From an uncultured Alphaproteobacteria bacterium (GTDB lineage: Bacteria; Pseudomonadota; Alphaproteobacteria; Micavibrionales; UBA1664), in assembly GCA_943789475.1 (NCBI GenBank), contig CALSUG010000006.1, forward strand, positions 199,425-263,424: a DNA stretch of 64,000 nt, given 5' to 3'. Positions within the stretch are counted from its first letter, which is position 1. Every line of letters starts with the position of its first letter. This document shows, one piece after another, positions 8,044 to 61,600 of this stretch. The position numbers and the translations under genes were made by a program. Under the pieces are notes generated by a model. It was not told the DNA's origin, did no database searches, and saw only the letters and a list, made by a program, of their open reading frames with translations.

Positions 8044-8090
8044 TCCTTAGACATTTGAACTTTATAAGTAATAAACACGTATATTTCACA

Positions 8091-8124: not shown

Positions 8125-8143
8125 ATCCTTAGATTACAATACC

Positions 8144-18678: not shown

Positions 18679-20244
18679 CTAATATCGAACTATATAGGGG
18701 TGTAGCTCAGTTGGTAGAGCACCGGTCTCCAAAACCGGGTGTCGCAGGTTCGAATCCTGTCGCCCCTGCCATTTTTGATAAGACGTCAAATTTACCAACA
18801 AATCAAACGGCGTTTTCAAAGTATAGCAAAGCTTTGCGCCCTTTAGTTCCAAGTTCGAAAACACATATCCGATTAATTGGCGTTTTTCGTCCGTTGTCGA
18901 ACGATCAAAAATGTTTAGCGCCTTTGAAGCTATAGAAACCAAGGTACTGACTGCCATTCGAAATTCTTCATCACCTGAATTATGGCGTTCTAATTGTTCC
19001 TGCACTTCCTGCCTGTGCTGGATTAGCTGACCATGCTTTCTGTCATACATATCCTTTGTAATACTCTTATCCAGATATTCATCCAAAAGTACATCAAGCC
19101 GTCTTGTTAAAATGCCATGTTCTTTGTTCAAGGCAGTAATAGACGCCTGATAATAATCTTGTTCGTTTCTATGTGTCTTTTTCAGGCTTTCTAATATTTC
19201 GGTTAGCAATTCTTCAGGAATTTGAATTGACGCAAAAATACCCCTGAGCTGATCCAAAACAATATTTTCTTTAGTGTATAGCTTTTTATCTGGATTTGCA
19301 GGATCACGATTGATTAAATAGATATGCCTTCCCTTCTTCAAATCGCAACTGACAAGCCTGCCAGATACAGCGCATTTGATAAGCCCACGAAAGATATATG
19401 GATATTTTGTTTCAACTACAGCTTGATTACGTCCACGACCTTCCCTGACAGCCTGACAAGCATCAAATAAATCTTTGCTAATTAATGGGTCATAAGCATG
19501 CGGATATAATTGCCCCTTTACCTTCATCATCCCATAATAAAATGGGTTTTGTAATAATCTATGGATTGTTTGCGTATAAACTTTTTTGCCCTTTAAGGTT
19601 CGCAAGCCCCAATCATTTGCTTTTCTGACCAGTTCAGCGATTGAATAAATGCCCTTAGAATATTCTTGAAAAAGGTTTCTGACTAAAAAGGCTCGTTCAG
19701 GGTCAATAATAACCGTGTTTTTTCGTCTTTCTGGATCAGGCGCATTTAAATACCCTAATGGCGCTGATCCTGTGCATTCACCTTGTGAAAGCTTTTGTTT
19801 GAGGCTTCTTTTGACGTTATCGGACAAACTATCAGTGTATGATTGCGCCATGACAACACCCATATTCCACATAAGCTTTTGCATACTATTGGAATCTTTA
19901 TTGAGGACATTACTTTCTTTAACAAAATGAAGTTCCAAAATGTCTTTTTCGAATAATTCGTTTAATACGGGAGTTTCTTTGAAACTACGTTGCAGGCGGT
20001 CAACTGTATCAACAACCAGCGCAATTTTTTCCTTTTGCGCTTTGATAAAATCAATCATCCGCATAAATTCAGGCCGTTCGCCTTTTGTTGAAGATTCAAT
20101 CGCCGTGAATTGCTTTATGATTTGAAAATTATTTCGGTCTGCATACTGCCTTAAATTCGAAATCTGGGCATCCAGCGAATGACCGTCCTCTTGTTCCTTT
20201 GTCGACACACGGGCTAAAATTACGGCTTTCATGGTCAGCGTCAC
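18679..20244 (-). CDS. large serine recombinase (integrase)
   Basis: 521 aa. N-terminal resolvase catalytic domain (AVILARVSTKEQ, DRLQRS), then recombinase, zinc-ribbon-like and coiled-coil regions. The last ~31 codons are antisense to tRNA-Trp. Confidence 0.9.
   Translation of the reverse strand: MTLTMKAVILARVSTKEQEDGHSLDAQISNLRQYADRNNFQIIKQFTAIESSTKGERPEFMRMIDFIKAQKEKIALVVDTVDRLQRSFKETPVLNELFEKDILELHFVKESNVLNKDSNSMQKLMWNMGVVMAQSYTDSLSDNVKRSLKQKLSQGECTGSAPLGYLNAPDPERRKNTVIIDPERAFLVRNLFQEYSKGIYSIAELVRKANDWGLRTLKGKKVYTQTIHRLLQNPFYYGMMKVKGQLYPHAYDPLISKDLFDACQAVREGRGRNQAVVETKYPYIFRGLIKCAVSGRLVSCDLKKGRHIYLINRDPANPDKKLYTKENIVLDQLRGIFASIQIPEELLTEILESLKKTHRNEQDYYQASITALNKEHGILTRRLDVLLDEYLDKSITKDMYDRKHGQLIQHRQEVQEQLERHNSGDEEFRMAVSTLVSIASKALNIFDRSTTDEKRQLIGYVFSNLELKGAKLCYTLKTPFDLLVNLTSYQKWQGRQDSNLRHPVLETGALPTELHPYIVRY
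18696..18771 (+). tRNA. trnW: tRNA-Trp (anticodon CCA)
   Basis: AGGGGTG acceptor stem pairs with CGCCCCT. D-loop AGCTCAGTTGGTAGAGC. Anticodon arm CCGGT-CTCCAAA-ACCGG. T-arm GCAGGTTCGAATCCTGT. Encoded GCCA 3' end. 76 nt. Confidence 0.95.
18765..18773 (+). repeat. left junction core (attL) CCTGCCATT
   Basis: Identical 9-mer at 25530-25538. Covers the last 7 nt of tRNA-Trp plus 2 nt. Confidence 0.55.
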
Positions 20245-38895: not shown

Positions 38896-39605
38896 TGTAT
38901 AATCACATTGCCATCATAGGCAGTTCAAGGGCCATAGGCAGCGCCTTTTATGCCGAGCTATCCACGCTCTGTCCTCAGGCGGTTATCCATACATTTTCAA
39001 GGCATGATGAAGGCCGCAGCCACCATCATATGATTGATTATACTGATGAAAAAACAATTGAACACTCCGCCAAAAAAGCATCTTTGGGTGCGCCATTTGA
39101 CCTTATTCTTGTTACAACAGGCGTTTTAAAGACTGAACCCAACATCGAGCCTGAAAAGTCTTTAAAAGATTTATCAGCACACAAATTTGAGGCCATTTTT
39201 GCGGCCAACACAATTTTTCCAGCTCTGATCGCAAAACATTTTTTGCCAAAATTAAATAGAAAAGATCGATCTGTTTTTGCCGTTTTATCAGCGCGGGTCG
39301 GTAGCATATCGGATAATCATTTGGGAGGGTGGCATGCTTACCGTGCATCAAAATCCGCCCTGAATATGATTATTAAAAACGCAGCTATTGAAATTGGACG
39401 ACGATGTCCAAATGCAATTATTGTGTCTTTACATCCTGGAACAGTCGATAGCAAACTTTCTAAACCGTTTCAAAGTCAGGTGTCAAAAGACAAATTATTT
39501 ACGCCAGAATATTCGGTTCAAAAATTGATAAATGTTATGAACGGCCTGACACCGGATGACAGCGGAAAATGCTTTGGATGGGATGGGCAGGAAATCGAAC
39601 CATGA
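38895..39605 (+). CDS. SDR-family oxidoreductase (CsgA/C-factor-like)
   Basis: IIGSSRAIGSAF and YRASKSALN. The stop overlaps the photolyase start. Confidence 0.8.
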   Translation: MYNHIAIIGSSRAIGSAFYAELSTLCPQAVIHTFSRHDEGRSHHHMIDYTDEKTIEHSAKKASLGAPFDLILVTTGVLKTEPNIEPEKSLKDLSAHKFEAIFAANTIFPALIAKHFLPKLNRKDRSVFAVLSARVGSISDNHLGGWHAYRASKSALNMIIKNAAIEIGRRCPNAIIVSLHPGTVDSKLSKPFQSQVSKDKLFTPEYSVQKLINVMNGLTPDDSGKCFGWDGQEIEP

Positions 39606-41038
39606 CAAACACCCCTATTATTGTTTGGTTTCGACAAGACTTACGCCTGCGCGATAATCCCGCTTTTATCGCGGCGGCTGAAACAGGACAACCCGTTTTA
39701 CCTATTTATATTTTAGATGATGAAAATGCAGGTGATTGGAAAATGGGCGCGGCAAGCCAATGGTGGCTCCATCACTCTTTAACATCTCTGAATAAAAATT
39801 TGGATGGTAATTTACGTGTATATCATGGTGATGCCTCAACAATTATTAGCGATATTATAACCGAAACAAAGGCAACTACGCTTTATTGGAATCGATGCTA
39901 TGAACCATGGCGGATAGCGCGTGATAAAGGCATTAAATCTTCTTTAAAGGATAAACATATTCATGTGCAAAGCTTTAATGGATCATTATTGTTTGAGCCA
40001 CATGCTGTTTTAAAAGAAGATGGCACGCCCTATAAAGTCTTTACGCCCTTTTACCGCAAAGGATGTTTGGAACGGAATGTAGAGCCTCCCAAACCACAAG
40101 ATACACCTGATGCAATCGAATACTATTACGCTACAAACAAAACACAAATTAGCGATTTAAAACTATTGCCAACGATCCCATGGGACACAACGATGCGTGA
40201 AGAATGGACAATTGGTGAGGACGGCGCGCAAAAACGTCTATCTGAGTTTTTAAATAATGGCCTAAATAATTATAAAGAAGGACGCAATCATCCTGCGCAA
40301 GACAATGTGTCGCGCTTGTCCCCTTATCTGCATTTTGGTGAGATCTCTCCGCGTGATATATGGCATGAGACCAAGGCGACAATGGTCGCCCAAGGATTAG
40401 AAAAAGACGGTGATCATTTTTTAAGCGAGATTGGCTGGCGCGAATTTTCGAATAATTTACTGTATCACTTCCCAGATTTACCACGAGAAAACTTACAAAA
40501 AAAATTCGATTATTTTCCATGGTGTGATGACCAAGAAGCATTGAAAGCATGGCAAACAGGACAGACAGGATATCCAATTGTTGATGCCGGTATGCGCGAG
40601 TTGTGGCAGACAGGGTACATGCATAACCGTGTCCGTATGATTGTTGGATCGTTTTTAGTCAAAAATCTGCTCCTCCACTGGCACCATGGCGAGAGTTGGT
40701 TCTGGGATACATTGGTGGATGCTGATTTGGCTAATAACAGCGCGTCTTGGCAATGGATCGCAGGATGTGGCGCTGACGCCGCGCCTTATTTCCGCGTTTT
40801 TAACCCCATAACACAGGGACAAAAATTTGATAAAGACGGAACATATATCCGAAAATATATTCCTGAAATCGCCGCCCTTCCTGAAAAATATCTGAATTGC
40901 CCTTGGGAAACCCCCCAAGACATACTTAATCATTGTGGTATTACATTAGGCAAGACTTACCCAAACCCCATTGTTGATTTAAAAGTGTCCCGTGAACAAG
41001 CGCTCAATGCCTTTCAATCAATTAAAGAGAATAGTTAG
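39602..41038 (+). CDS. phrB: deoxyribodipyrimidine (CPD) photolyase, class I
   Basis: MTNTPIIVWFRQDLRLRDNPAF, SRLSPYLHFGEIS, GWREF, TGYPIVDAGMREL..TGYMHNRVRMIV, DADLANNSASWQW and FRVFNP. Starts at the internal ATG at 39602. Confidence 0.9.
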   Translation: MTNTPIIVWFRQDLRLRDNPAFIAAAETGQPVLPIYILDDENAGDWKMGAASQWWLHHSLTSLNKNLDGNLRVYHGDASTIISDIITETKATTLYWNRCYEPWRIARDKGIKSSLKDKHIHVQSFNGSLLFEPHAVLKEDGTPYKVFTPFYRKGCLERNVEPPKPQDTPDAIEYYYATNKTQISDLKLLPTIPWDTTMREEWTIGEDGAQKRLSEFLNNGLNNYKEGRNHPAQDNVSRLSPYLHFGEISPRDIWHETKATMVAQGLEKDGDHFLSEIGWREFSNNLLYHFPDLPRENLQKKFDYFPWCDDQEALKAWQTGQTGYPIVDAGMRELWQTGYMHNRVRMIVGSFLVKNLLLHWHHGESWFWDTLVDADLANNSASWQWIAGCGADAAPYFRVFNPITQGQKFDKDGTYIRKYIPEIAALPEKYLNCPWETPQDILNHCGITLGKTYPNPIVDLKVSREQALNAFQSIKENS

Positions 41039-41043
41039 CGGCG

Positions 41044-41205
41044 GACTACAACCTCTGCCATTCAGTCCATTAATTTCATAAATTATCGATAATTACTCCG
41101 TGTGCCCCGCTTCACGCGGCGCTTGTTGATCTATTCCTTCTCGACGGATCACGGAGAACGAAATATATCACGCTATTTCACCCTTTTTCTCTACGCGAAA
41201 TAACT
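41044..41205 (+). repeat. dispersed intergenic repeat, copy B (diverged interior)
   Basis: Shares GACTACAACC-N-CTGCCATTCAGTCCAT at the 5' end and CACCC(T/A)TTTTCTCTACGCGAAAT at the 3' end with copies C/A. The interior differs but keeps a GC hairpin at 41104-41122. Confidence 0.7.
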
Positions 41206-41346
41206 AAGCCCACCTAACGTTAGATACGATTGAAGTACCAGCTCATTGGAAAGATAAAGAAGATGCGTTTAGAGAAAACCTAGAAGCTACATTACAGCTA
41301 AAGCAAACCTTATTCTGCCATTACTGTTTTGGCAAGCTCAACCGCA

Positions 41347-43428
41347 TTACATTAGCTGTTTTTTTATTTTAGCTATTTCGTTTTGAATAGAATTCAGCAA
41401 GCTATTTTTTGTCTGAATTGTTGCTTGATACATCCCTTCCGCTTCGGCGCAAATAAATGCTAGCTTTTCAGCACGCATATTAGCAGCAGATCCTTTGATT
41501 TTATGAGCCGCTTTACGCCATCGTTGGTTATCATCACTATCTATTGCACCTTTTAAGCTCTCTACAGCCTCATCCGATGTTGTGAAAAATAAATCAAAGA
41601 GCATTCTTTCATCTTCTGAGTCACTGCCAAATAATTCACGTAATGCAGGAAGATCGACTGGTGTTAGTGTATCGACAGATACGGGATCTTGATTTTGGAT
41701 ATTTTCCGAGGATGTTGGAATGCTTGATTCAGCAGAACTTAAATCTAACTCTTCATACCGCACCCATTTTTGTAACGTTTGTTGTAGGGCGTTTGGGTCC
41801 ACAGGTTTGCTAAGATAATCATCCATTCCCGCGGCAATACATTTTTCACGATCTCCCTTCATTGCATTTGCAGTCACTGCAATAATAGGTGTATGAAGCG
41901 CATTACCTTGATGCATTTTACGAATAGATTCTGTTGTTTCAAAACCGTCCATACCAGGCATTTGGCAATCCATTAAAATGGCATCATACATTCCAACTTG
42001 TGTGTATTCAAAGGCTTCTTGTCCATTATCAACCATTTGCACTCGATCAATTCCCATTTTTTTCAAAAGTTTTCGCATATACATCAGATTAATCGGATGA
42101 TCATCAACAACCATGATATTCGCATTGGAAAAATCAACTTTAGTCAAATGACGCGTATCTGTTGACGTGTGGGTAGTATCGATATCCGCCTCGATAATTG
42201 GGATTTTAAACCAGAAACTAGATCCCTGTCCTTCAATACTGTGAACACCTATTGCGCCCCCCATAAGCTCGGTTAATTTTTGACTTATGCTAAGACCTAA
42301 ACCTGTTCCGCCAAATCGTCGAGATGTAGATTCATCCGCCTGTGTGAATTTCATAAAAATATCATTTAGTCGATCTTTTGGAATACCAATTCCCGTATCA
42401 TCAACAACAATTTTCATCATATTATCTTCAGTACGAGAGAGTGTTAAAGCTATCTCTCCTTTATCAGTGAATTTAAGCGCATTACCGATAAGGTTAATTA
42501 TAATTTGCTGTAATCGTGTTGAATCTCCGATCAGCCCTGCAGGAAGACTAGAGGGATAATGATATTTGAATTCAATTTTTTTATCTTCTATTTGAGATTT
42601 GAGTAATTTTGTTGTGTCATCAATGACCGCTTTTAAATTAAAAGGAATATTTTCAAGTGTCATTTCTCCCGCTTCGATCTTTGAAAAATCGAGAATATCA
42701 TTGAGTAATATAAGAAGAGATTCGGATGATTTATTGATAGCCTCAATCGATTGTTCTTGCTCTGCATTTAATGGGGTATCCATAAGTAAATCAGATAAAC
42801 CAATAATACCATTCATCGGGGTGCGGAGCTCGTGACTCATATTTGCTAAGAATTCACTTTTTGAAACATTAGCAGTTTCTGCCTTTTCTATTTGACGCTG
42901 CAATTCAATCTCGCTGGCTTTACGTTCAGTTACATTACGCTCTATTGCTGTAAAATGCGTAACAACACCTTTGTCATCTTTCACGGGGGTGATATTGATG
43001 TCTAACCAATATTCAGCACCATCTTTTGAGAAATTTTTAAGTTCACCTTGAAATGATTTTCCATTAGATAGTTTTTCTTTGAGGTCGTCTAAGACATTTC
43101 TATCCGTTGCATTACCTTGAAAAATACGGGGCGTTTTTCCAATAACCTCTTCTGCGGTATAGCCTGACAATTTGGAAAAAGCATGGTTCACATAGATGAT
43201 ATTGGGCCCATTGACCAAATCGGAATCCGTAATCATGATCGCATCTTTTGCGTTAACAACTGTTGCTTCTAATAACCGGATGTTTTCATGAAGATTTATG
43301 TTTATATCGTAAAGCTCTTGGCTTTTTTTCTCTAATAAAATTTCGGCCTGTTGGCGCGCATTTTTTTCGCGCGCAAGCCGTTTCTTCATGCGTTCTATTT
43401 TATGTTCTGCGTCATTATCAATTGTCAT
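41347..43428 (-). CDS. cytoplasmic hybrid histidine kinase (coiled coil, PAS, HisKA, HATPase_c, REC, HPt)
   Basis: 693 aa. H-box [29 protein letters not shown], receiver ILMDCQMPGMDG and HPt AHKIKGSAANM. ATGA overlap with the H-NOX stop. Confidence 0.9.
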   Translation of the reverse strand: MTIDNDAEHKIERMKKRLAREKNARQQAEILLEKKSQELYDININLHENIRLLEATVVNAKDAIMITDSDLVNGPNIIYVNHAFSKLSGYTAEEVIGKTPRIFQGNATDRNVLDDLKEKLSNGKSFQGELKNFSKDGAEYWLDINITPVKDDKGVVTHFTAIERNVTERKASEIELQRQIEKAETANVSKSEFLANMSHELRTPMNGIIGLSDLLMDTPLNAEQEQSIEAINKSSESLLILLNDILDFSKIEAGEMTLENIPFNLKAVIDDTTKLLKSQIEDKKIEFKYHYPSSLPAGLIGDSTRLQQIIINLIGNALKFTDKGEIALTLSRTEDNMMKIVVDDTGIGIPKDRLNDIFMKFTQADESTSRRFGGTGLGLSISQKLTELMGGAIGVHSIEGQGSSFWFKIPIIEADIDTTHTSTDTRHLTKVDFSNANIMVVDDHPINLMYMRKLLKKMGIDRVQMVDNGQEAFEYTQVGMYDAILMDCQMPGMDGFETTESIRKMHQGNALHTPIIAVTANAMKGDREKCIAAGMDDYLSKPVDPNALQQTLQKWVRYEELDLSSAESSIPTSSENIQNQDPVSVDTLTPVDLPALRELFGSDSEDERMLFDLFFTTSDEAVESLKGAIDSDDNQRWRKAAHKIKGSAANMRAEKLAFICAEAEGMYQATIQTKNSLLNSIQNEIAKIKKQLM

Positions 43429-43967
43429 TTTTTCTTGAGTGTAAAGATGCGGGAATACATTTCATCTGTATTTTGATCTTCACTGTCTATCTCTATATCT
43501 TCTTTATAAAAATCTATACATCCTGCCATCAACCCATGTGCAAAATCGGCAAAGGGACATTGGGATTCGTAAACCATTATTAAAGTCTTATCGTCTTCAC
43601 GGGTCGTTTTGAAAGAAGGCAAGTTTGCTTCTGGATATAATTTTTTAACTTCAACATGGATCGTGTCATGAACACTTTCTAAAAATTCAAATGCGGATTG
43701 TGGTTCTTCAAAAAAATGTGGCATTAATTCGCTAAACCTCGAAAAAAGATGATGCCCATACTTATAAACAAGATCCTTAACTGGAATATTTGAATGCTTA
43801 CTGAGTGCGCCAACAAGATGTAAAAGCTCAACATGATTATAAGTTCCGACCGCCGTGTAAGCTCCGTCAGTTTCTAACTCACAATCATCAATAATATCAT
43901 CCACCATATCTGTACCGAACAAGGTCTCAACTAGTTGAAAAAATTCTGTAAAGACGATGCCCTTCAT
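43425..43967 (-). CDS. H-NOX (heme nitric oxide/oxygen binding) sensor protein
   Basis: 180 aa with MKGIVFTEFFQLVE, the proximal-His region VHDTIHVEVKKLYPEANLP, and a YESQC variant of the YxSxR motif. Confidence 0.8.
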   Translation of the reverse strand: MKGIVFTEFFQLVETLFGTDMVDDIIDDCELETDGAYTAVGTYNHVELLHLVGALSKHSNIPVKDLVYKYGHHLFSRFSELMPHFFEEPQSAFEFLESVHDTIHVEVKKLYPEANLPSFKTTREDDKTLIMVYESQCPFADFAHGLMAGCIDFYKEDIEIDSEDQNTDEMYSRIFTLKKK

Positions 43968-44060
43968 ATAAGATGCCCCTTATTTTTAAGTTTTATGCAT
44001 TTTCAGTGTATCGAGAAAGGTTAAAAACAAGAATAAGATTAGTTAAAATGTCATACATTC

Positions 44061-45431
44061 TTATGCTGTTTTGTATTCACGCACCTTACGATAGAGTGTT
44101 GATTTTGCGAGCCCCAATGATTTTGCTGCCTGTGTCATGTTGTTATTATGATGATGCAAAGCCTCTTTAATCATCACGATTTCCATTTCTTCTATCGTTT
44201 TATAAGGAGTGGATATTTCATCTATATTAGGAATGTCCTTCTCCTTACTTTGGTTTAATTGTTTTTGAAGAGGAAAATCCGAGATTTGTAATCGTACATT
44301 ATTGCTTAACACAAAGGCGCGATGAACACTGTTTTCCAGTTCACGTACATTTCCTACCCACCGTCTTTTTTGTAAGACCATAACCGTTTTTGGATCAATA
44401 TTTTTTTTAGGCATATTCGCAGTGATCGCAATATTGTTCATGAAACAATCAATGAGTGTTGGAATATCTTGTGGTCGATCTCGCAAGGCAGGAATACGCA
44501 TCTGTAATACATTAAGACGATAATAGAGATCTTCGCGAAACAATCCCTTTTGCACATCATTTTCTAGATTTCTATGTGTCGCGGCAATAATACGCACATT
44601 GACCTTAATAGATCGTGATGCCCCCACAGGTTCAACTTCTTTTTCCTGCAGAACACGGAGCAATTTAACCTGAGCCTCCAACGGCAAATCACCGACTTCG
44701 TCTAAGAATACAGTCCCCCCATCGGCCTCACGAAATTTACCGATTTTACTTTCTGTCGCACCCGTGAACGCACCTTTTTCATGACCAAATAATGTACTTT
44801 CAACTAAATCTGCGGGAATAGCACCACAATTGATTGCAATAAAGGCGGCGCCAGATTGCGAACTTTCCCCATGAATGGCCTTTGCAAACAACTCCTTACC
44901 AACACCTGTTTCTCCGTTAATTAAGGTCGGAAGATCAACCATGGCCGCTTTACGCCCTAATTGAACTATTTCACTTAATCCACCATCATGACCAATCATA
45001 TTATCGAATGTGAAACGATCTGTTTTGTCATGCTTTAATCGCACAATTTCTTTTTCCATCGTCTGCATTTTCAGAACGTTTTGAATTGTCACCGTCATAC
45101 GATCTTTATCGTATGGTTTACTAATATAATCGGACGCACCAATTTTAATTGCCTCTACGGCTTGCTCTAAATCTTGTGCGCCAGACACCATAATTACAGG
45201 AAGGGATGGATATAACTTTTTAATCTTCTTTAATACATTCATTCCATTCATAATCGGCATTTCAATATCAGATATGACTAAAGATATTGTTTTCTTCGTT
45301 AACAAAATTTCAAGAGCTTTACGGCCATTTTCTGCCACATAGGAATGTAAATTCATTTTAGTGCGCAGAAATGCTTCTAATATTACCCGCTGGGTTGCGT
45401 CATCCTCGATAATCAAAACTGTTTTAGCCAT
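44061..45431 (-). CDS. sigma-54-dependent response regulator (NtrC/LuxO class)
   Basis: REC domain ([13 protein letters not shown]), AAA+ Walker [15 protein letters not shown] loop (EKGAFTGA) and a C-terminal Fis-type HTH ([15 protein letters not shown]). Confidence 0.9.
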
Positions 45432-45457
45432 ACATTGAGCATATCACAAAAAGCATC

Positions 45458-45479
45458 ATAATGATAATTTTATCATTAT
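45458..45479. promoter_or_regulatory. perfect 9-bp inverted repeat ATAATGATA-ATTT-TATCATTAT, candidate enhancer (UAS) site
   Basis: Lies ~90 nt upstream of the sigma-54 promoter, in the divergent intergenic region next to the activator gene. An extra ATGATA half-site is present near 45492. Confidence 0.4.
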
Positions 45480-45549
45480 AAAACGATCAAAAATGATAGG
45501 CTAAGAATAATCGTCATGCTATCGTATTGATTTTACAAACTATTTTATT

Positions 45550-45565
45550 TGGCACGTTCATTGCT
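45550..45565 (+). promoter_or_regulatory. sigma-54 (-24/-12) promoter TGGCAC-N5-TTGCT
   Basis: TGGCACGTTCATTGCT matches the consensus TGGCAC-N5-TTGCW with GG-N10-GC spacing. It is followed by SD AGGAAGGAG (45581-45589) and the ATG at 45597. Confidence 0.7.
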
Positions 45566-45596
45566 CTTATACTATTACGCAGGAAGGAGACAACGT

Positions 45597-46511
45597 ATGA
45601 AAATAGCCACTCACAACTCTGAAAAACTCCTCTTGGCCGATTTGCGTGAAGCAAGGATCGGAAATCCAACTCATCGTTGTCTCCTTTTGCGACTATCCAA
45701 GGCGAAAGAACCCATGACCACATGGCTACCACGCTTGGAACGCTCCCTCCGTCACACATTAGGGGAAACAATTAATCAAGTTTACCTGACTCATGATCAA
45801 GATGTATTCATATACGGTTGGGGAATCACTCAAACATTGGTACAAGATCTAATGTTTGATTTGTCAGAAACACTTTCTGGCAAAACCCTACAAGGCTTAA
45901 TACATTTTTATGAAATTGGCATACATTGGGATGAGCTAGAATCCATGTGTGTTGGAAAAGTTCGTGCATTTGAGGCAAAACAAAAACAAGAAAAATCCGT
46001 TAAACAAAGCAATGAATTTGAAAAAATTTCTGCTGATGATGCATTTAAGGAAATGGACTCATCCTTAATAAAATCAATTGAAAAACGTCGATCAACACGC
46101 AAAGATCCTAAAATACTAATTGTTGAAGATGATGTTTTTTCTCAAACCCTTATTAAAAAGGCACTGAACGACAAATATGATTTGGCCTTATCCGATGATG
46201 GCCAAGGCGCAATTTTAGGGTATGTGAAGGTCGCACCAGACATTATGTTTCTAGATATAGAATTACCTGATATTAATGGTCATGATGTTTTGAAAAAAAT
46301 TAAAATGATTGATAAGAACGCTTATGTTGTCATGTTTAGCGGAAATGGTGATCGTGAAAATATTTTAAAGGCTCTTGATCTTGGTGCACAAGGATTTGTG
46401 GGCAAACCTTTTGCAAAAGAAAAGTTAATCCAGTACATCGAAAAATCACCATCTGTGAAACAAAAAACATCCACTCGAAACACAATAAACGCAAAGGAAA
46501 AATTATCATGA
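45597..46511 (+). CDS. response regulator with C-terminal REC domain and ~170-aa N-terminal domain of unknown function
   Basis: C-terminal KILIVEDD...IMFLDIELPDINGHDVLKKIK...VVMFSGNGD...GFVGKPF. Starts at the Met after the SD; the track start at 45549 is upstream of the promoter. Confidence 0.75.
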   Translation: MKIATHNSEKLLLADLREARIGNPTHRCLLLRLSKAKEPMTTWLPRLERSLRHTLGETINQVYLTHDQDVFIYGWGITQTLVQDLMFDLSETLSGKTLQGLIHFYEIGIHWDELESMCVGKVRAFEAKQKQEKSVKQSNEFEKISADDAFKEMDSSLIKSIEKRRSTRKDPKILIVEDDVFSQTLIKKALNDKYDLALSDDGQGAILGYVKVAPDIMFLDIELPDINGHDVLKKIKMIDKNAYVVMFSGNGDRENILKALDLGAQGFVGKPFAKEKLIQYIEKSPSVKQKTSTRNTINAKEKLS

Positions 46512-46669
46512 ATCCAATCATTCCTATGTTTTTTATTACGCTATTTATGATGGCCATAACTATGACCTTGGCTCTATCACCTGACGCATCAATAGGATGC
46601 ATAATGCTGGGCACAGAAATTAATGGTGACTACTCAACTGAATATTTATTCTTGGGCGATTGCCGTTAA
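46508..46669 (+). CDS. possible translationally coupled 53-aa hydrophobic/secreted peptide
   Basis: ATGA overlap with the regulator stop. Sequence MNPIIPMFFITLFMMAITMTLALSPDASIGCIMLGTEINGDYSTEYLFLGDCR has a signal-like N-terminus and 2 Cys. Not in the ORF track (<60 aa). No homology evidence. Confidence 0.25.
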   Translation: MNPIIPMFFITLFMMAITMTLALSPDASIGCIMLGTEINGDYSTEYLFLGDCR

Positions 46670-46705
46670 AAAATTATATAAAAACTGAGAACACTGTCAT
46701 TATTT

Positions 46706-47427
46706 CTATTCTTTATTATAGATTACTGGCATTTCACCTTTCCACTCTGACCATTTATTATTATCTGTAATCAACTCTGCCATAAAGTGACCTACGTTAA
46801 TACGGCTGGTTTTACCTGCATCAAAAATTGCATCTCTGATTGGTGATGAGTGCAGATCATATGCAGTAACGTCGGCACAATCAATCAAGCCATCTGGACG
46901 CACCACAACCCATTCAATGACCTCATCATTCTGCCCAATTTGAGTACGCAAATAATCAGCAGCTTCCTCATTATCCACATGTGGAGGAAGTAGTAAACGA
47001 AGAAGCCAAATTACACATTTATGACTGCAAGAAACTTCCTCATTCAAATCACGATTACGGTTTCCTGTTGTGTTCATAAGGACAAACTTGATTGCTTTTT
47101 TCGAATCGCTTGCCTTGACGGCATTACACAGTCTTCTCGTTGCATCTGTCACGAGTCTGCGTGGCGATCCAAACATTCCCTTAAAAGTTAAATTGTGGCC
47201 TAAGCATGATATCAACGCATCACAACCTTGCACATGCCCCTCCATTTCAATATCACTAAGCTCTAATATGCTTGCGTTATTAACAATAGATTTTCATGGT
47301 TCCTGATTTTTTCAGGAAGGCTATCCATTGATCGAACAACGGCTTTTACTTTTTGCCCTCGTCCAAGTAATTGCTCAACAAGCAAACGGCCTGTTGCACC
47401 GCTTGCACCTACCACAAGAACTGTCAT
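46706..47427 (-). pseudogene. NmrA/atypical-SDR NAD(P)H-binding protein, disrupted by a 1-nt frameshift
   Basis: The N-terminal frame reads MTVLVVGASGATGRLLVEQLL...ENLLLITQAY* (47427-47263). The C-terminal frame reads ..NNASILELSDIEMEGHVQGCDALISCLGH... (to 46706). The two frames can only be joined between 47263 and 47296. Confidence 0.65.
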
Positions 47428-47577
47428 CGTTTTCTTTCTATTTTATGATTATCCATTAGATATTATGGCATAATAACATGAAAATTCGACGCTCTTTGAA
47501 AACAATTAAAGTTGCCAACTTTATCGACAATGATTTTGCACTTGTAATGTACTAAAAATAGAGAAAATTTATTACCT

Positions 47578-47753
47578 GACTACAACCACTGCCATTCAGT
47601 CCACCAATCCATCCGACATAGAGAATACGACCTGACAAGCGCGGCTTTCCGCGTGGTGTTGCTATGCATGTCAAAAGGTGACGCCTAGAGAATGTTGTAG
47701 AAAGGTGTTTTCTCACCCATTTTCTCTACGCGAAATATTTCACCCTCTGGTTT
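47578..47753 (+). repeat. dispersed intergenic repeat, copy C
   Basis: See copy A. It includes the 10-nt upstream extension GACTACAACC shared with copy B. Confidence 0.85.
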
Positions 47754-48173
47754 TAAAGCATAAAAAATAATCATGAGACTGATATCTAATCAACTGTAAA
47801 AAACTAACTTTTCTCGACGCCCTACTCATACTCATCTTTCCTAGTGATAACTATCCTGAACCATATTTTTTAACCAGCCTACACTATAACGGGTGTCCAA
47901 TTTCCATCGAATTAACAATTTCTGACCACAGTACTTTGTGAACATATAATCCACAATATCGCTTCTTAATTAGCTCCCTAATTTCATCTAAGGAAGTTAT
48001 TCCACGAATGCCTTCCATCGTAATAAAGATAACTCTTATAGCACAACAAATTCATATAAATGATACGGGTGTTGGCAATACATTTTTGACATGTTAATTT
48101 TACATACTCAACATGATAGTATGCAGTATGAAAATAAAATTGACTCATATATTTTTATTTTCTATAAAAATAT

Positions 48174-48989
48174 ATGCAGCACTATAGTCGCCCTCATTTT
48201 TATTACAAACCTGATGATCAGAAGGCGGAACAATTTGCAAAAAAACTTGGTGAGGTTACTGGTGTATACGATCAAGAAAATTGTGATGTAATTGTTACTA
48301 TTCCTGGTGATGGCTCTGTTTACCATGCCTTTCATCATGCAGTGAACAAGCCGGTGTTTGCCGTCAAACCAACAACGAGTAATAGTGTTCTTTTTAGTGG
48401 ACATGAAAACATTGAAAATGGACTCCAGCTTAAAGAAGCTCTTACTAGTGCACACACGCACACCATTCACCCATTAAAAACAGACATCTACATGTCTGAT
48501 GGAACGATGACCCAAGTGTGGTCTTATGTTGATATCAACATTCGGTCAGACAACGCGCAAGCCACACTAATTCAAGAACATATTAATGATATTCCAAGCA
48601 CAGATAAACCTGTGATGGGAAGCGGTTGGATCGTTGCAACTCCTTTGGGATCAACGGCCCTTAATGAAACACGTGATGGAGAAGTGTTACCAATAGGAAC
48701 ACCATCAATCGTTCGTACAATGAATGGCGTGAGTAATTATTACGAACGACAGATGTTAAAAGAAAAAAATATGATCTCGGTTATAATTGGAGACAATTCG
48801 TTATTTCATATAAGAGTTGCGGCAAATCATGAAAAGCGAGCAACTGTTATTGATCATGATAGTTGGACATTCTCACCTAAAGACGGAACAAATATTGTCA
48901 ATGTCCGTGTAACAATCGATAAAGCACCTGAGCGTGCGCGAATATTATTGCTGAATACACGATACAGAACACCAAACCCATTTTTGTAA
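48174..48989 (+). CDS. divergent NAD kinase-like protein
   Basis: 271 aa with VIVTIPGDGSVYHAF (GGDGT-type motif) and WIVATPLGSTALNE (TPTGSTAY-type motif). Confidence 0.65.
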   Translation: MQHYSRPHFYYKPDDQKAEQFAKKLGEVTGVYDQENCDVIVTIPGDGSVYHAFHHAVNKPVFAVKPTTSNSVLFSGHENIENGLQLKEALTSAHTHTIHPLKTDIYMSDGTMTQVWSYVDINIRSDNAQATLIQEHINDIPSTDKPVMGSGWIVATPLGSTALNETRDGEVLPIGTPSIVRTMNGVSNYYERQMLKEKNMISVIIGDNSLFHIRVAANHEKRATVIDHDSWTFSPKDGTNIVNVRVTIDKAPERARILLLNTRYRTPNPFL

Positions 48990-49006: not shown

Positions 49007-51685
49007 ATGACACAATCAAAATTATCATTACGCGTAACGCAGGCATCCCTTAACCAAACTGCACTTGATTGGCCACAAAACATGGCCAACCATTATGCCG
49101 CAATTGATGTTGCCGTTGGTGAAGGCAGTGACATGGTTTTAATGCCAGAGTTGAGCATCACGGGTTACGAAGTGAATGATGATTTCCAACGCACAGATAA
49201 TAATCGTATTTATGATGCGTTATGTTCAGTTGCTGATTACGCTCATAGTAAAGATCCCAATCTTTTGGTGTCTGTTGGGAACCCATGGCGTGTTCAATTG
49301 CGTGAGGCGTTTGAGAGTGCTGCACCAAATCCTGATTTGATTAAAAATCCATTATATGACCGATTAAACCTTCCCTTTAATGTTCAAACCTTGATGGGGG
49401 GCGGGCGTATATTGGGCATGACGGCTAAGACAAATTTATTCCGTGATGAACGCGGTTATGAGAACCGTTATTTCAACGAATGGAGTTTTGCAGCAGCAGA
49501 AGAATTTGCGAAACTAATGGGTGTTCAAAGTACTTATGGAACATTGCCAATTCGATTACCAGGTCAAGAAATTATTCCGTTTGGTCTCCCTCTTTACTTT
49601 GTTCAAGATAAGAATGAGAGTGCTTATATTCATGTAACATCAATTTGCGAAACAAAATGGACTGCGACGAAATATGATGGTTACCCATATAATGATAGTC
49701 GTTATGAACAATTGAATATTATTCCTTCTACATCACGATGGTTGGGAACGAAATCAGGTATTTTACGGGAAATATCAAACGCAAGTCCGCCAACGCGTTT
49801 AAAGAACGATAAACATATGCATTTGAATGATCTGGCATCGCAATATGATGATGTTGTTATCGATACAGATGGTTTAGGGACAAGTGGTGCAACATTTTCA
49901 CAATATGGGCATCGCAATATTTCTCAGAACGGTAAGACTATTTCTGTTGGACAACGTATTACATTTGGTCAAGGTGCGACAACGACATCAACAATTCAAA
50001 TTAATAATGCTGATCTCGCATTAGAGGATAAAACGCATGTAACCATTACGCGTGATTTTAAAAATGTTAATGCACCACAGGAAGTGGGTTTTGCATGGAA
50101 CACGCATCAAGGTGCATGGGATCATCCTGAAAACTCAGATCGTTGGAAAGAAGAACATATTCGCAATCAAGCATTATGGATGTTTGATTATATGCACAAA
50201 ACGGGTGCGCGCGGAATTATGGAGGCGTTAAGTGGAGGAAAGGATTCTTCATTCAATTGTGCCATGGTGCGTGTGATGGTCGAATTGGCAATACATGATC
50301 TTGGTGTTGAAGGATTTTGTGAACAAATGTCACATCTTCCTTACAAAGATAAAATTTTGCAAGCCTATAATGGTGGCGGCAAAGAGGCCGCGATTGAGGT
50401 GTGTATGGATAACATGTTAACTGCTGTTTATATGGGTACGAATAACAGTTCGTTTGAAACGTGGAACGCCGCCAAAACACTAATTGACGGTGGTGAATTT
50501 GAAGATAGCGATAAATTTTTCAAAGGAATTGATGGTAAATTTGTTGAACGTAATGTTCAAGATTTATTAGATTTTTACGCATATATTTTTGCAGTTTCAA
50601 ATTCAACAGAAGTCCCTCGTGAAAAGAAATTGGAAGTGATGGAGGATTTGGCTGAATTTTTAAATGCTAATCCACATGACCATACGCCGGATGAAATGGA
50701 TGCGTGGGAAACACGCTTGTTCAAAAAATATCCAGAGGTTCAACAACTTGTCTCTGCAGCAAAACCCGGGCATGGTTTAGGATACGAAAATATTCAGGCT
50801 CGCGGACGTGAAGTTTTGATCATGTTGTTTGCCAATATCGAAGGGAAAATGCCTGTTGCTAATCCAAATTTGGATGAGGCCTATGGTGCGTATGCAACAT
50901 TTGGTGGTGATTTGCACAGTGGTACCGTGAATTGGAATGCTGGATTACACAAGGCTGATCAAGAAGCCTTAATGGAGTATTTAGAAGAAAAAGGTGTGCA
51001 GGGTGTTATGGATCGTATTGTTGCGCTTGCCCCTGCGAATAACAATCGTCCAAGCGCAGAACTCCAGCCGAAAAAAGATGGTGAAGTATCTCAATTTGAT
51101 GAAGACGCATTGCAAGGAACATTTCCGCAAAAAGCCGCATTGGCACGCTTGCGCCATCACACGAAAATACATACCGCCGATGGTTCACGTTGGATGAATG
51201 CGGGTGAATTATTTGATCGTGCACGCGAAGATAATTTATTTAATCCATTGGATGATAATCAGTTGTTCAACTCGGTTGCTTATTTTTACCAACGGTGGGA
51301 AGGGCCCGCGCAACACAAAATTCATGCAACACCACTTGCACCAACAATGGGTGAAAATGTTGATAAACAAACGTCTCTTCGTACACCGAATTTAAGCGGT
51401 GATAGCAAGGATGAAATTGTCGCGCTCGGGATTAATTTAATATTCAAATGGGCGGAGGAAGATAATATTTCCCTTGATGGATATGGTGATCTACATCGTC
51501 GTGCGTGGCAAGATAAAGCCTTTGCATCATCCTTCGTGAGTCATGCAAAAAATCAAGGTGATGATAAAGATGTCATGACGTATGACCTGCGCGCTTTATA
51601 CAACAAGGTTAAAGAAAACGGGTGGGATGGAACATTTCCTAAACCACAAACTACATATTCCCAAAAAACATGGAACATAGGATAA
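49007..51685 (+). CDS. nadE: glutamine-dependent NAD+ synthetase, unusually long (892 aa)
   Basis: N-terminal CN-hydrolase triad context (MPELSITGY; AKTNLFRDERGYENRYF; SICETKW). C-terminal PP-loop SGGKDSS, YENIQARGR and ATFGGDLHSG. Long insertions and a ~250-aa C-terminal extension. Confidence 0.8.
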   Translation: MTQSKLSLRVTQASLNQTALDWPQNMANHYAAIDVAVGEGSDMVLMPELSITGYEVNDDFQRTDNNRIYDALCSVADYAHSKDPNLLVSVGNPWRVQLREAFESAAPNPDLIKNPLYDRLNLPFNVQTLMGGGRILGMTAKTNLFRDERGYENRYFNEWSFAAAEEFAKLMGVQSTYGTLPIRLPGQEIIPFGLPLYFVQDKNESAYIHVTSICETKWTATKYDGYPYNDSRYEQLNIIPSTSRWLGTKSGILREISNASPPTRLKNDKHMHLNDLASQYDDVVIDTDGLGTSGATFSQYGHRNISQNGKTISVGQRITFGQGATTTSTIQINNADLALEDKTHVTITRDFKNVNAPQEVGFAWNTHQGAWDHPENSDRWKEEHIRNQALWMFDYMHKTGARGIMEALSGGKDSSFNCAMVRVMVELAIHDLGVEGFCEQMSHLPYKDKILQAYNGGGKEAAIEVCMDNMLTAVYMGTNNSSFETWNAAKTLIDGGEFEDSDKFFKGIDGKFVERNVQDLLDFYAYIFAVSNSTEVPREKKLEVMEDLAEFLNANPHDHTPDEMDAWETRLFKKYPEVQQLVSAAKPGHGLGYENIQARGREVLIMLFANIEGKMPVANPNLDEAYGAYATFGGDLHSGTVNWNAGLHKADQEALMEYLEEKGVQGVMDRIVALAPANNNRPSAELQPKKDGEVSQFDEDALQGTFPQKAALARLRHHTKIHTADGSRWMNAGELFDRAREDNLFNPLDDNQLFNSVAYFYQRWEGPAQHKIHATPLAPTMGENVDKQTSLRTPNLSGDSKDEIVALGINLIFKWAEEDNISLDGYGDLHRRAWQDKAFASSFVSHAKNQGDDKDVMTYDLRALYNKVKENGWDGTFPKPQTTYSQKTWNIG

Positions 51686-58600: not shown

Positions 58601-61600
58601 TTAATCAATCAAACAAGTTGTTTCACTTGAATTCCAAACCAGGCAAGATGCCGAAGAAGTAGATATTTGCAAATCTTCTAATTCATTTTTTTTCTGTTTA
58701 TTTTTCTTTTTGGAAGGTTTAGATACTTTGTTCTCAACAAATGTTGCCACATAATTATCTATATTATTATCTGGAACACCGGCAGCGGGGCCATTTTCAA
58801 ATATAAATTTATTATCTGTTCCCGTTACGGATGCAGGTGAGAGGTTTGCATGTGTTTCATGGTAAACCTCTGTTCCAATCAAACCATTAGGAGAAAAATC
58901 CAAATAATTCTTCGCATAAATTAAGAACCGACCGCTATCTGAATCAATGGCTGATGCACCAACATTGTTAACAAGATCACCTTCAATATTTAAAATAACG
59001 GTACTACCAGATCCTGATCCTGTAACAGCTCCACTGTTCAACACTATATCTCCTTGTGTACTCTCTAGATACACTACACCTCCACCAGTCAAACCATTAT
59101 CTACCGTTATAGTGCCTCCGAAGACACTCAAATCATATCCAGATGGAGAAACGTCAACATTATCTATATTAACAACACTTGTCGTTTCATCTTCACCAAT
59201 ACGCAGCTCGTTAACAGCAGAAAAACGATTGATATCTGTATTATCAAGAACCAACGTTCCTGCTCCAGATCCTAAACCAACTGTTGCTCCGACTGTTCTT
59301 GTTAGAAGGGTTAAATTATTCCCTGATGAGATGGTCGGTGTATTAAAAAAATCATAACTATCTGCGTTTAGCTTTATATTCGCGTTCGTTGTTGACACCT
59401 CCCCGTCACTCATAAAAATATCATCATTGTTTGAACCTGATCCTCGCCCCTCACCTGTAATGTTGATTTCACCGTCAACAGAGGTTACTTGCGTTCCAAC
59501 TTGTCTAATGTGAACACCGTGGTTAGAATTTGTTCCTTCTCCACCGACACCACTAATCACGATTGTTGCCGCATCTGTCCCTGTTCCTGTGGAAGATATT
59601 GCGGCACTATCGTTTATATAAACACCAAAATTTTCGTGGTCCGCTCCACTACTATTCCCCTCACCTACAATTGAAATATTCCCATCTACAGACGTTATCG
59701 TGGTTCCAGCCCCCTTAACATTAATACCAAAATTAGATCTACTTCCATGTCCTGCCGTTCCATTCAAAGTGATTGTTGCCGCATCTGCCCCCGTCCCCGT
59801 AGAAATAACATCTACTCCACGACTAAGAAATATTCCAACATTATTTTGACCTGCAACGTTTCCACCATTACCTGTGATTAGAATATCCCCATCTACCGAG
59901 GTTATCCGCGCATCATTTACGGCATTTATACCATGATTATATTGACTTCCTAATGCACCCGTACCAGTCAAAGTAATTTTTCCAGCATTCACCCCAACAC
60001 CTGTTGATAAAATTTTAGCGCTGTTAGAAAATTGAATTCCTACGTTTGACTGATCCGTACCATCACTTCCCCCTAAACCTGTAATCTGCAAATTTCCATC
60101 CACGACAGAGATTGTTGCGCTACTCCTACTATAATATCCAATATTACCTCGCCCACCAGCACCCCCAGTTGCATTGATGGTAATATCCGCGGCATTAACA
60201 CCCGTTCCTGTAGAAATAATGTCCGCGCCATTTTCTGTGTATAAACCATAATTACTATCACCACCGCTACCGTCACTTCCGCCAAGGGCCGTGATATTTA
60301 TATCACCTACAATAGAATTAATAATTGTATTACCATCAGTTAAATAAACACCATGATTTTGCGTTGTACCATTTCCACCTGTACCGTTTATTGTAATTTC
60401 TGAAGCATCTGAGCTTGTTCCTACCGATGATACTTCGGCGTTAGATGCCACTATAATACCGTAATTTTGGCCACCACTTCCATGACCACCCTGACCTATG
60501 ATCTCAACATTACCAGCAACCGATGTTATTTGCGTTCCTGTATCTTCAACACGCACTCCATAATTAAGACTATCTCCATTCGCTCCTGTACCGTTTATTG
60601 TAATTTTAGCAGCATTTACGCCAGTACCAGTTGATGCAATATCAGCATCAACTTCTATAAAAGTACCATAATTATAATTGCTTCCTGCTGCTCCATTGGA
60701 GCCACCTTGACCAGTGATATTAACATCACCATCAATTGAAGTGATTAAAGAACCTCCATTTGTATGTCTTATTCCATGGTTGTAATCACCGCCAGCGCCA
60801 CCAGTACCATCCAGTGTTATTTTCGCGGCATTTACACCTGTTCCCGTTGAGGTTATATCGGCGTCACCCATCAAAGTAATACCGTAATTCTGCGCACTCA
60901 CATCCGCTCCATTAGAGCCACCTTGACCAGTGATATTAACATCACCATCAATTGAAGTAATTAAGCTACCCGCATCATCAACACGAACACCGTGATTGTT
61001 ATCTTCACCAGCACCACCAGTACCATCCAGTGTTATTTTTGCGGCATTTGCACCTACTCCTGTTGAACTTATATTCGCTCCCGAGACAACACTAATCCCA
61101 TAGTTGTTGGCACTTCCTGCCGCTCCGTTGGATCCACCTTGGCCCGTAATATCAATATTCCCCTCTACAGATGTAAGAGATGCGCTATTTAAAGTAACCC
61201 CAACACCTCCACCTTGAGCTAAAGCTCCCGTACCATCCAGTGTTATTTTTGCGGCGTTCACACCCGTACCAGTTGAACTTATGTCTGTTCCTGATATAAG
61301 GTTAATCCCCACATTACCCGACGTTCCTACCGTCCCAAAAGAACCTGCTTGACCAACAAAATCAATGTCTCCATCAACGGAGGTTATTGTTAAATCTCGA
61401 CCATAAACCCCATAATTGTTATCTTCTCCAACGCCACCAGTCCCGTTAAAATTTAAAGTTGCTGCATTGACACCAGCTCCGGTTGAGGAAATAGTTGTAT
61501 CTTGGAGATATATACCAATATTACTATCGCTTCCCGCAACACCAGTCGTGCCACCTTGACCAGTGATATTAATATTACCTTCCGCCGAGGTAATGTCTGC

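Follow-up and report, generated by a model that had tools for sequence, protein, structure and literature searches.

We describe here a signalling cassette in a stretch of 64,000 nucleotides (the window) from an uncultured Alphaproteobacteria bacterium of the Micavibrionales (UBA1664; assembly GCA_943789475.1, contig CALSUG010000006.1). It comprises the genes of an H-NOX protein, a soluble hybrid histidine kinase with its own receiver (REC) and HPt domains, a sigma-54 enhancer-binding protein (EBP), a REC protein whose N-terminal domain matches no known family, which we call X-REC, and a 53-residue protein; sensor, relay, activator, enhancer, promoter and target all lie inside ~5.3 kb. By comparison with related loci, the five genes, the sigma-54 promoter and an enhancer-like palindrome are shown to form an evolutionarily conserved unit. 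For the scheme as a whole, the sequence data incline us, by a small step, to read the locus as a self-contained and autoregulated phosphorelay cassette.

The sigma-54 promoter and its palindromic enhancer

The EBP and X-REC genes are divergent, and the region between them carries TGGCACGTTCATTGCT, which an earlier note on this DNA, made from its letters, had described as a consensus sigma-54 promoter aimed at the X-REC gene. The description holds, as this element is the sole exact TGGCAC-N5-TTGCW match in the 64-kb window, for which shuffled sequences give an expectation of 0.08. A sigma-54 element is present upstream of X-REC in 13 of 13 distinct loci that possess the EBP, with the variants TGGCAT, ATGCA, TTGAA, TGGTAT and CTGCT among the loci, and in none of the three loci devoid of it (L029, L030 and L032; related loci carry L numbers throughout).

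Further upstream, at 77-80 bp from the TGGCA, an inverted repeat of the form 6-N18-6 with a central (A)ACG is found in 11 of the 14 loci scanned. It fits a palindromic activator site of the kind found about 80-150 bp upstream, and the activator would be expected to bind there. The two half-sites co-vary between loci: they read TTATCA...TGATAA in the window, L009, L013 and L023, TTCTTA...TAAGAA in L024, and TTCTCA...TGAGAA in L015, L016, L021, L022, L025 and L027. In the window an extra half-site adds the palindrome TGATAAttTTATCA, of which there is a single exact copy. When the intergenic region of the window is shuffled, such a repeat appears at that position in ~8% of trials; moreover, the loci are phylogenetically connected, so that locus counts overstate the number of independent observations, and the compensatory changes of the half-sites are the least affected by this. 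Because the half-sites change symmetrically at a fixed distance, as a dimer-binding enhancer co-evolving with a helix-turn-helix (HTH) protein should, the adjacent EBP very probably activates the promoter, and we regard the compensatory changes as strong, though indirect, evidence for this step.

Between the enhancer and the promoter lies the block ATTGATTTTA, which is invariant in an alignment of four intergenic regions and, from its one-mismatch resemblance to the consensus, may be an IHF-like DNA-bending site. Weak sigma-70-like matches that could serve the EBP gene overlap the enhancer; since they are no more frequent than in shuffled sequences, an autorepression of EBP through them deserves little weight. 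No further copy of the enhancer or of the promoter was found in the 64-kb window. A Qrr-like small RNA was also considered as a target of the promoter and rejected, since an Rfam scan of positions 40500-48500 returned no small RNA behind it.

Conservation of the cassette in related loci

The divergent pair formed by EBP and X-REC occurs in 13 distinct loci, down to ~37-44% identity. In the window-type loci (L009-L014 and L023; 70-91% identity), kinase, H-NOX and EBP are encoded on one strand and X-REC with the 53-residue open reading frame (ORF) on the other, and the flanks differ, with polA, a 5'-nucleotidase gene or unannotated genes. In the operon-type loci (L015, L016, L021, L022, L025 and L027; 43-49% identity), EBP is still divergent from X-REC, and downstream of X-REC on its strand come a second REC protein of ~280 residues and then the PAS-kinase-REC-HPt protein; in L022, L025 and L027 the H-NOX gene stands between these last two. 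Compared with the window, the proteins of L022 are 48% (kinase), 50% (EBP) and 66% (H-NOX) identical. The commonest arrangement in relatives is X-REC, second REC protein and kinase in one operon, with H-NOX in about half, and by this comparison the arrangement of the window is a rearranged version in which the 53-residue gene takes the place of the second REC protein. Of the cassette, L024 and the short contig L028 contain EBP and X-REC only, L026 contains X-REC, H-NOX and kinase, L037 contains EBP, X-REC and kinase, and L029, L030 and L032 contain X-REC and kinase without EBP.

Counted over the 120 best homologues each of X-REC and of H-NOX (contigs being matched by identical size), 31 of the X-REC set have an H-NOX of the other set on their contig, and for X-REC homologues located on contigs of at least 10 kb the fraction with H-NOX on the shared contig is 19/52. 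Judged from gene content, the constant partners of X-REC are the hybrid kinase with its HPt domain and, in most loci, the EBP, and H-NOX is a frequent but optional input, present in about half of the relatives. The earlier note held that the whole path from gas sensor to sigma-54 output is hard-wired locally; synteny, promoter and enhancer are indeed conserved, but H-NOX does not belong to the core of the cassette. By its IF-3 protein, the window is closest among named sequences to Micavibrio and Rhodospirillales (61-64% identity), with metagenome assemblies supplying the unnamed best hits; a label of gamma-type, considered for the arrangement of the window, was discarded on this result. Proteins identical to those of the window also occur on a 293-kb NCBI contig and in ENA and Logan assemblies. 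Because cassettes closely related to it were recovered from Tara and further marine metagenomes, the source organism is probably marine. The listed homologues are mostly from marine metagenome assemblies or metagenome-assembled genomes (MAGs), with none from a cultured organism among those listed.

The second REC protein of the operon-type loci (L016 8897-9736, L022 9878-10720, L021 9887-10741, L025 8882-9718) has a receiver 39% identical to that of X-REC. It was considered as a paralogue of X-REC and discarded, as BLASTP similarity in L022 covers the receiver only and nothing N-terminal; its N-terminal ~165 residues have no Pfam match (L016 and L015) and may be a second unknown output domain.

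Some loci carry further genes beside the conserved ones. In L016, the genes directly downstream of EBP (2684-6206) encode a periplasmic binding protein and an HPt-less hybrid kinase of the membrane, which resemble a LuxP/LuxQ pair; judging from this pair, the HPt of the PAS kinase may collect signals from several sensors. In L024, a type IVb pilus cluster (TcpQ, secretin, PilO, ATPase and platform protein; 3134-10840) follows a tRNA-Ala gene (2887-2962) that shares bases with X-REC at its annotated end. An association with type IV pili was rejected, as this tRNA gene separates X-REC from the cluster, which is probably an island at the tRNA rather than a part of the cassette. Polysaccharide genes near L016, L021 and L023 are inconsistent across loci, and we treat such a link as unproven.

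The kinase, H-NOX and the activator

The gene anatomy proposed earlier was recovered in full by ORF calls and Pfam domains (Table 1): all five ORFs are in place, the stop of hnoX overlaps the start of the kinase gene in an ATGA (43425-43428, minus strand), and the activator gene lies on the same strand, just upstream of both. The pairing of hnoX with a co-operonic cytoplasmic kinase, as in HnoK, HqsK and HahK, is seen in the window and also in L022, L025, L026 and L027.

The kinase shows the tripartite layout of the ArcB, BarA and TorS type, with the three phospho-accepting residues H199, D487 and H642 all present. It had been proposed to be a soluble PAS hybrid kinase with its own REC and HPt, in agreement with its Pfam domains; it has no transmembrane (TM) segment, its highest 19-residue Kyte-Doolittle mean being 0.91. 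Against the equivalog models it reaches 441 bits for BarA (cut-off 890), 415 for TorS (677) and 364 for ArcB (838), all below the cut-offs, so by these scores its likeness to the three is at family level only. The PAS domain is nearest to the FAD-PAS of MmoS (3ewk) and to LOV domains, and at the site of the photoactive cysteine of LOV it reads GKTPRIFQG, with the Cys absent; the domain is probably a flavin-based sensor of redox type rather than a photoreceptor, and thus a probable second input of the kinase. Seen the other way, H-NOX looks like an added second input, since the same PAS kinase occurs in cassettes without it.

The H-NOX protein matches HNOB over its full length and the solved H-NOX 6ocv with an E-value of 1e-41. 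The proximal heme-ligating H104 (in IHVEV) is present together with P117, Y133 and S135. The motif that contacts the heme propionates, YxSxR, is replaced by YESQC, opposite which the aligned solved chains read YQSKR or YKSSR. A Cys occupies the Arg site in 120 of the 120 nearest homologues (59-100% identity, mostly alphaproteobacterial MAGs), all but three of which match the His-containing xHxEV pattern, and among the papers listed for that motif together with H-NOX, none deals with a Cys variant, judging by titles and abstracts. The YxSxC proteins look like an undescribed H-NOX subfamily. The earlier note had made its circuit depend on an H-NOX able to bind heme, and Cys137 bears directly on that condition: because the clade is devoid of the Arg of YxSxR, binding of heme and of nitric oxide (NO) cannot be assumed from the family assignment. 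We favour NO as the ligand with moderate confidence.

EBP has the features of NtrC-family enhancer-binding proteins, namely a REC domain, an AAA+ domain with GAFTGA and a Fis-type HTH. The label of NtrC/LuxO class given to it in the earlier note is correct for the NtrC family but finds no support for LuxO, as the LuxO model NF041946 gives 322.8 bits against a cut-off of 800. The NtrC equivalog TIGR01818 is likewise below its cut-off (412.8 versus 558.6 bits), and by these models EBP is a generic member of the NtrC family. The gap between EBP and hnoX is 93 bp and contains no terminator, and for this reason EBP is probably co-transcribed with hnoX and the kinase gene in the window.

X-REC and its N-terminal domain

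In the ORF list the X-REC gene starts at a TTG (45549), which falls inside the promoter; the true start is the ATG at 45597, behind AGGAAGGAG, and therefore the protein has 304 residues, as in all close homologues. The N-terminal part, first described as an unknown domain of 170 residues, does match no known family, but it consists of a folded domain of ~135 residues and a linker of ~35 residues.

The receiver is a canonical one (Pfam E-value 5e-23; Foldseek against CheY, E-value 2e-11), with E177, D179, D220, S248 and K270 invariant in 30 sequences. The structure of the N-terminal domain, the prediction of which had been proposed as a check in the earlier note, was modelled with AlphaFold2 from a 49-sequence alignment (pLDDT 93, pTM 0.86). 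The predicted fold runs helix, strand, helix, beta-hairpin, helix, strand and long helix. R27, Y63, D69, E106 and K121 are invariant and W43 and D67 nearly so, with D67 and D69 located in the hairpin.

No match to this domain was found in Pfam (E-values up to 10), NCBIfam or PADLOC. When the model was searched against the PDB with Foldseek, GGDEF domains came first but weakly (E-values 0.02-0.2, TM-scores 0.38-0.49), and ACT and other ferredoxin-like folds scored about the same. The domain matches no GGDEF profile and has no GG(D/E)EF motif, the hairpin reading HDQDVF; the available evidence does not place it in the GGDEF family. A fold search with the full-length model returned CheY-like receivers only, a sequence-profile search of the PDB receiver domains only, and a contig scan of the genome collection with X-REC only distant or receiver-only matches.

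Among 1.8 billion cluster representatives, phmmer found 35 matches to the N-terminal domain. They are proteins of ~290-310 residues or shorter, probably truncated, sequences, and 34 of the 35 matches start within the first 17 residues. Since nearly all matches stand at the N-terminus of such ~300-residue proteins or fragments, the domain is, as far as these matches go, a narrowly distributed output domain with a single architecture. Full-length X-REC has at least 200 homologues at E-values below 1e-3; the best 120 are at 1e-66 or better and mostly ~290-310 residues long, and those with a source name are alphaproteobacterial MAGs, save one labelled Bdellovibrionales.

The 53-residue protein

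The possible coupled 53-residue peptide of the earlier note is a real gene: its start overlaps the X-REC stop, its length is equal in L009, L013 and L023, and its dN/dS values are low, 0.04/0.86 (~0.05) between the window and L009 and 0.03/1.83 (~0.02) between L013 and L023. Its ribosome-binding site sits inside the end of the X-REC gene. The protein has one hydrophobic helix (Kyte-Doolittle mean 2.18) and an acidic tail, GC.MLG.EINGDYSTEYL.LGDCR, with two Cys, C31 and C52, and no match in Pfam, NCBIfam or PADLOC. The gene is limited to the window-type clade, where it replaces the second REC protein of relatives. With its hydrophobic helix, its two Cys and its coupling to X-REC behind the sigma-54 promoter, the protein recalls MgrB, and is a candidate for a membrane-anchored or exported disulfide peptide, or for a feedback element.

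A small ORF with a TM helix and Cys residues was also considered as a general feature of the cassette and rejected, since only the clade of the window has one and that of L015 is unrelated. The latter is a 76-residue ORF (L015 7672-7902) between the sigma-54 promoter and X-REC, with a good ribosome-binding site, a hydrophobic helix and a two-Cys tail; it has no detectable similarity to the 53-residue protein and no homologue in the other loci.

Table 1 Features of the cassette, with positions in the 64,000-nucleotide window
Feature	Position	Strand	Remarks
Hybrid histidine kinase	41347-43428	-	693 aa; PAS, HisKA, HATPase, REC, HPt (Pfam)
Kinase HPt	41365-41601	-	H642
Kinase REC	41773-42117	-	D487
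Kinase HATPase	42196-42528	-
Kinase HisKA	42667-42864	-	H199
Kinase PAS, flavin-type	42919-43272	-	LOV/MmoS-like
Kinase coiled coil	N-terminus of the 693-aa kinase	-	Listed among the kinase domains
H-NOX (HNOB)	43425-43967	-	180 aa; Pfam HNOB PF07700, E 3.9e-41, full length, residues 2-161
H-NOX motif YESQC	43557-43571	-	Residues 133-137; Cys137 at the canonical Arg site of YxSxR
EBP, NtrC family	44061-45431	-	456 aa; REC, Sigma54_activat, HTH_8 (Pfam)
EBP Fis-type HTH	44073-44198	-
EBP AAA+	44499-44999	-	Walker A and GAFTGA (residues 220-225)
EBP REC	45084-45419	-	D55
Candidate enhancer (upstream activating sequence)	45462-45499	.	Core TTATCA-N18-TGATAG at 45470-45499, central AAACG
Extra half-site TGATAA	45462-45467	.	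Forms the palindrome TGATAAttTTATCA at 45462-45475
ATTGATTTTA block	45526-45535	.	Between enhancer and promoter
Sigma-54 -24/-12 promoter TGGCACGTTCATTGCT	45550-45565	+	32 nt upstream of the X-REC ATG
Shine-Dalgarno AGGAAGGAG	45581-45589	+	X-REC gene
X-REC	45597-46511	+	304 aa; N-terminal alpha/beta domain, charged linker, CheY-like receiver
X-REC N-terminal domain	45597-46001	+	Residues 1-135
X-REC receiver	46113-46439	+	VEDD acidic residues, D220, S248, K270
53-residue small protein	46508-46669	+	Start overlaps X-REC stop, ATGA 46508-46511

Surroundings of the cassette in the window

On the kinase side, a photolyase gene (39569-41038) lies on the opposite strand, ~300 bp past the end of the kinase gene. 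On the other side, a gene for an NAD(P)H-binding, NmrA-like protein (46706-47427, minus strand) is split by a frameshift into ORFs of 54 and 179 residues; the split recurs in four independent assemblies (L017-L020), so that a genuine pseudogene is more probable than a sequencing error. Downstream of the cassette is a block of poorly characterised genes, in which an 892-residue protein (49007-51685, plus strand) has a weak and partial NAD_synthase match as its sole hit, and its neighbours (271, 394, 257 and 734 residues) have no Pfam match at E-values up to 1e-5.

Farther away, at 2752-15595 (minus strand), a type I secretion set (HlyD-like protein, ABC transporter and outer-membrane efflux protein) adjoins the gene of a 2483-residue RTX-repeat protein; upstream, 15828-17321 encodes a HAMP/HisKA protein that looks truncated, and 17342-18532 a periplasmic binding protein. 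A large serine recombinase with Resolvase and Recombinase domains is encoded at 18679-20244 (minus strand). The GC content falls to 0.34-0.35 at 16-18 kb and 22-24 kb, stretches that may be mobile or acquired DNA. A 1622-residue exoprotein of two-partner secretion, with a TPS domain, is encoded at 58601-63469 (minus strand).

Discussion

What is established about H-NOX signalling comes from a small number of cultured Gammaproteobacteria and of other bacteria, where H-NOX feeds enzymes of cyclic di-GMP (c-di-GMP) or shared quorum-sensing or syp relays. We found no account in the literature of a cassette such as the one reported here.

If the locus is a self-contained phosphorelay, the kinase would autophosphorylate on H199 and pass the phosphate on via its own D487 to H642 of HPt, integrating the inputs of the flavin-type PAS and of the translationally coupled H-NOX; by analogy with the characterised H-NOX/kinase pairs, the ligand-bound H-NOX would inhibit it. 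HPt would then phosphorylate EBP on D55, and EBP, bound to the palindromic enhancer ~80 bp upstream of the -24 element, would open the sigma-54 promoter and yield more X-REC and more of the 53-residue peptide. D220 of X-REC would be a second acceptor for the same HPt, and its phosphorylation would control the N-terminal domain, either as the true effector or as a feedback regulator. In the operon-type relatives, the output of the promoter would also raise kinase and H-NOX and so close a feedback loop. The net logic would be that ligand-bound H-NOX lowers the flow of phosphate, leading to less X-REC and to less phosphorylated X-REC. That the kinase feeds both receivers is reasonably probable from operon membership, because it is co-operonic with X-REC in the operon-type loci and probably co-transcribed with EBP in the window.

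Several observations weigh against such a self-contained relay. We infer the phosphotransfer partners from gene order alone, and this order is not uniform: EBP and X-REC have no kinase nearby in L024, EBP is adjoined in L016 by another hybrid kinase with a periplasmic binding protein, and X-REC and the kinase do without EBP in L029 and L030. From these loci, the link between kinase and EBP is less universal than that between kinase and X-REC. The loss of the YxSxR motif may weaken or alter the binding of heme and NO, the N-terminal domain of X-REC matches no known family that would suggest a function, and no rpoN gene was seen in the 64-kb window.

Another reading of X-REC is that it is a feedback element induced by its own pathway, acting as a phosphate sink in competition with EBP for HPt or as a direct partner of EBP, with the true outputs at sigma-54 promoters elsewhere in the genome. 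A precedent of this logic is PspA, a sigma-54 target acting as inhibitor of the activator PspF, whose gene is divergent from its own. The bare divergent pair of EBP and X-REC is the most conserved unit, being found by itself in L024 and L028, X-REC comes first among the genes behind the promoter at every promoter-bearing locus, and its N-terminal domain shows neither a catalytic nor a DNA-binding signature, all of which would suit such a role. However, a plain sink needs no conserved domain of 135 residues with invariant R27, Y63, D69, E106 and K121, and the window holds no other copy of the enhancer or promoter, the rest of the genome lying outside the scan. By analogy, this role for X-REC is a tentative possibility that deserves to be kept in mind.

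It is also conceivable, though unlikely, that the H-NOX/kinase pair signals to X-REC only and that EBP is fed by another kinase, so that two pathways would meet only at the X-REC gene. In most relatives one operon contains X-REC and the kinase, which also occur as a pair without EBP in L029 and L030; in L016 a further hybrid kinase and a periplasmic binding protein adjoin EBP, and in L024 no kinase is near EBP and X-REC. Against this, EBP, hnoX and the kinase gene of the window, L009, L013 and L023 follow one another in the same direction at short distances, in a block with no other kinase, and the extra kinase of L016, having no HPt, would need that of the PAS kinase, much as LuxQ needs LuxU.

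A third alternative concerns the sensor: the YxSxC H-NOX may not be a heme-based NO sensor but a poor heme binder that serves as a thiol or redox sensor, or as a constitutive subunit of the kinase. All 120 nearest homologues carry the Cys while the nearest solved H-NOX proteins keep the Arg, and none of the papers listed for YxSxR and H-NOX deals with a Cys variant, judging by titles and abstracts. On the other hand, H104, P117, Y133 and S135 are conserved, HNOB is matched over its full length, and the strong purifying conservation suggests that the pocket has been kept; we consider this alternative rather improbable. As for a chance juxtaposition of unrelated two-component genes with a fortuitous promoter match, such genes are abundant and AT-rich intergenic DNA yields motif-like matches, but with synteny, promoter and enhancer conserved in 13 loci with different flanks, down to ~37-44% protein identity, and a promoter expectation of 0.08 per window, the comparative data effectively refute it.

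The self-contained phosphorelay shares its logic with known systems. In Vibrio, luxO is divergent from its sigma-54 target qrr1. Binding of NO turns H-NOX into an inhibitor of HqsK, the kinase upstream of LuxU and LuxO (PMC6759604), and SiliHK is likewise inhibited by NO-bound H-NOX, as are all other characterised H-NOX-associated kinases in the summary given in PMC4436077. The route from H-NOX to a sigma-54 activator is therefore already known in Vibrio, and the concept is not new. As with HqsK of V. harveyi and V. parahaemolyticus, hnoX shares an operon with the gene of a soluble hybrid kinase, from which a His-Asp-His-Asp flow would lead to a sigma-54 activator of the NtrC family. In contrast to Vibrio, HPt is fused to the kinase, whereas LuxU is separate and shared; EBP would be dedicated, adjoins the sensor genes and fails the LuxO model; and the target is an operon coding for X-REC and a peptide, with 32 nt between promoter and ATG, rather than a small RNA such as qrr. 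The kinase further differs from HqsK by its flavin-type PAS, and the H-NOX by its YxSxC. The extra kinase of L016, if it acted on the HPt of the PAS kinase, would resemble the several kinases that converge on LuxU.

In V. fischeri, HahK acts through the HPt of SypF, the regulators lie in the distant syp polysaccharide locus, and SypE has kinase and phosphatase domains. HnoX/HahK with SypF controls SypG and SypE (PMC12369376, PMC10162802), of which SypG is a sigma-54 enhancer-binding protein (PMC10162802). The logic of the cassette is the same, but the N-terminal domain of X-REC is unlike the domains of SypE, and no polysaccharide genes are wired to the cassette. In S. oneidensis, HnoX/HnoK serves HnoB, HnoC and HnoD, two of which control c-di-GMP (one is an EAL phosphodiesterase), and the third is transcriptional and gives feedback, as summarised in PMC4436077. 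One H-NOX-gated kinase with several response regulators is common to both systems; the regulators here are a sigma-54 AAA+ activator and a domain without EAL, HD-GYP or GGDEF signature, and our analysis found no link to c-di-GMP or to adhesin release. In the alphaproteobacterium Silicibacter sp. TrichCH4B, an H-NOX and an adjacent hybrid kinase act with a separate Hpt and an orphan, active GGDEF enzyme (PMC4436077). The H-NOX beside a hybrid kinase and the His-Asp-His-Asp relay are alike, but there the Hpt is separate and the output is a diguanylate cyclase, with no sigma-54 step reported.

Two other systems, PspF/PspA and MgrB, are analogies of logic only, the former for a divergent activator and target and the latter for an induced peptide with a helix and two Cys. 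MgrB is a small Cys-containing membrane peptide induced by the pathway that it inhibits. Because the kinase of the cassette is soluble, an action of the 53-residue protein on it from the membrane in the manner of MgrB is unlikely.

Taken together, these elements could belong to an uncharacterised pathway of marine Alphaproteobacteria, in which a YxSxC H-NOX of altered ligand chemistry occurs with a new palm-like or ferredoxin-like effector module of ~135 residues, either a GGDEF-related nucleotide binder or a PspA-like partner of EBP, and in which, in the clade of the window, the 53-residue protein is a pathway-induced disulfide peptide of the membrane or for export, serving as a feedback or intercellular signal; we put this combined picture forward as a speculation, doubtful in its entirety.

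In conclusion, read as a self-contained phosphorelay, the cassette would be a dedicated and portable version of H-NOX signalling. It would provide a clean system in which to study how an HPt divides phosphate between a transcriptional and a non-transcriptional receiver, and it offers a response-regulator output domain without known function. Furthermore, YxSxC represents a natural variant of H-NOX with which it could be tested how essential the arginine of YxSxR is.

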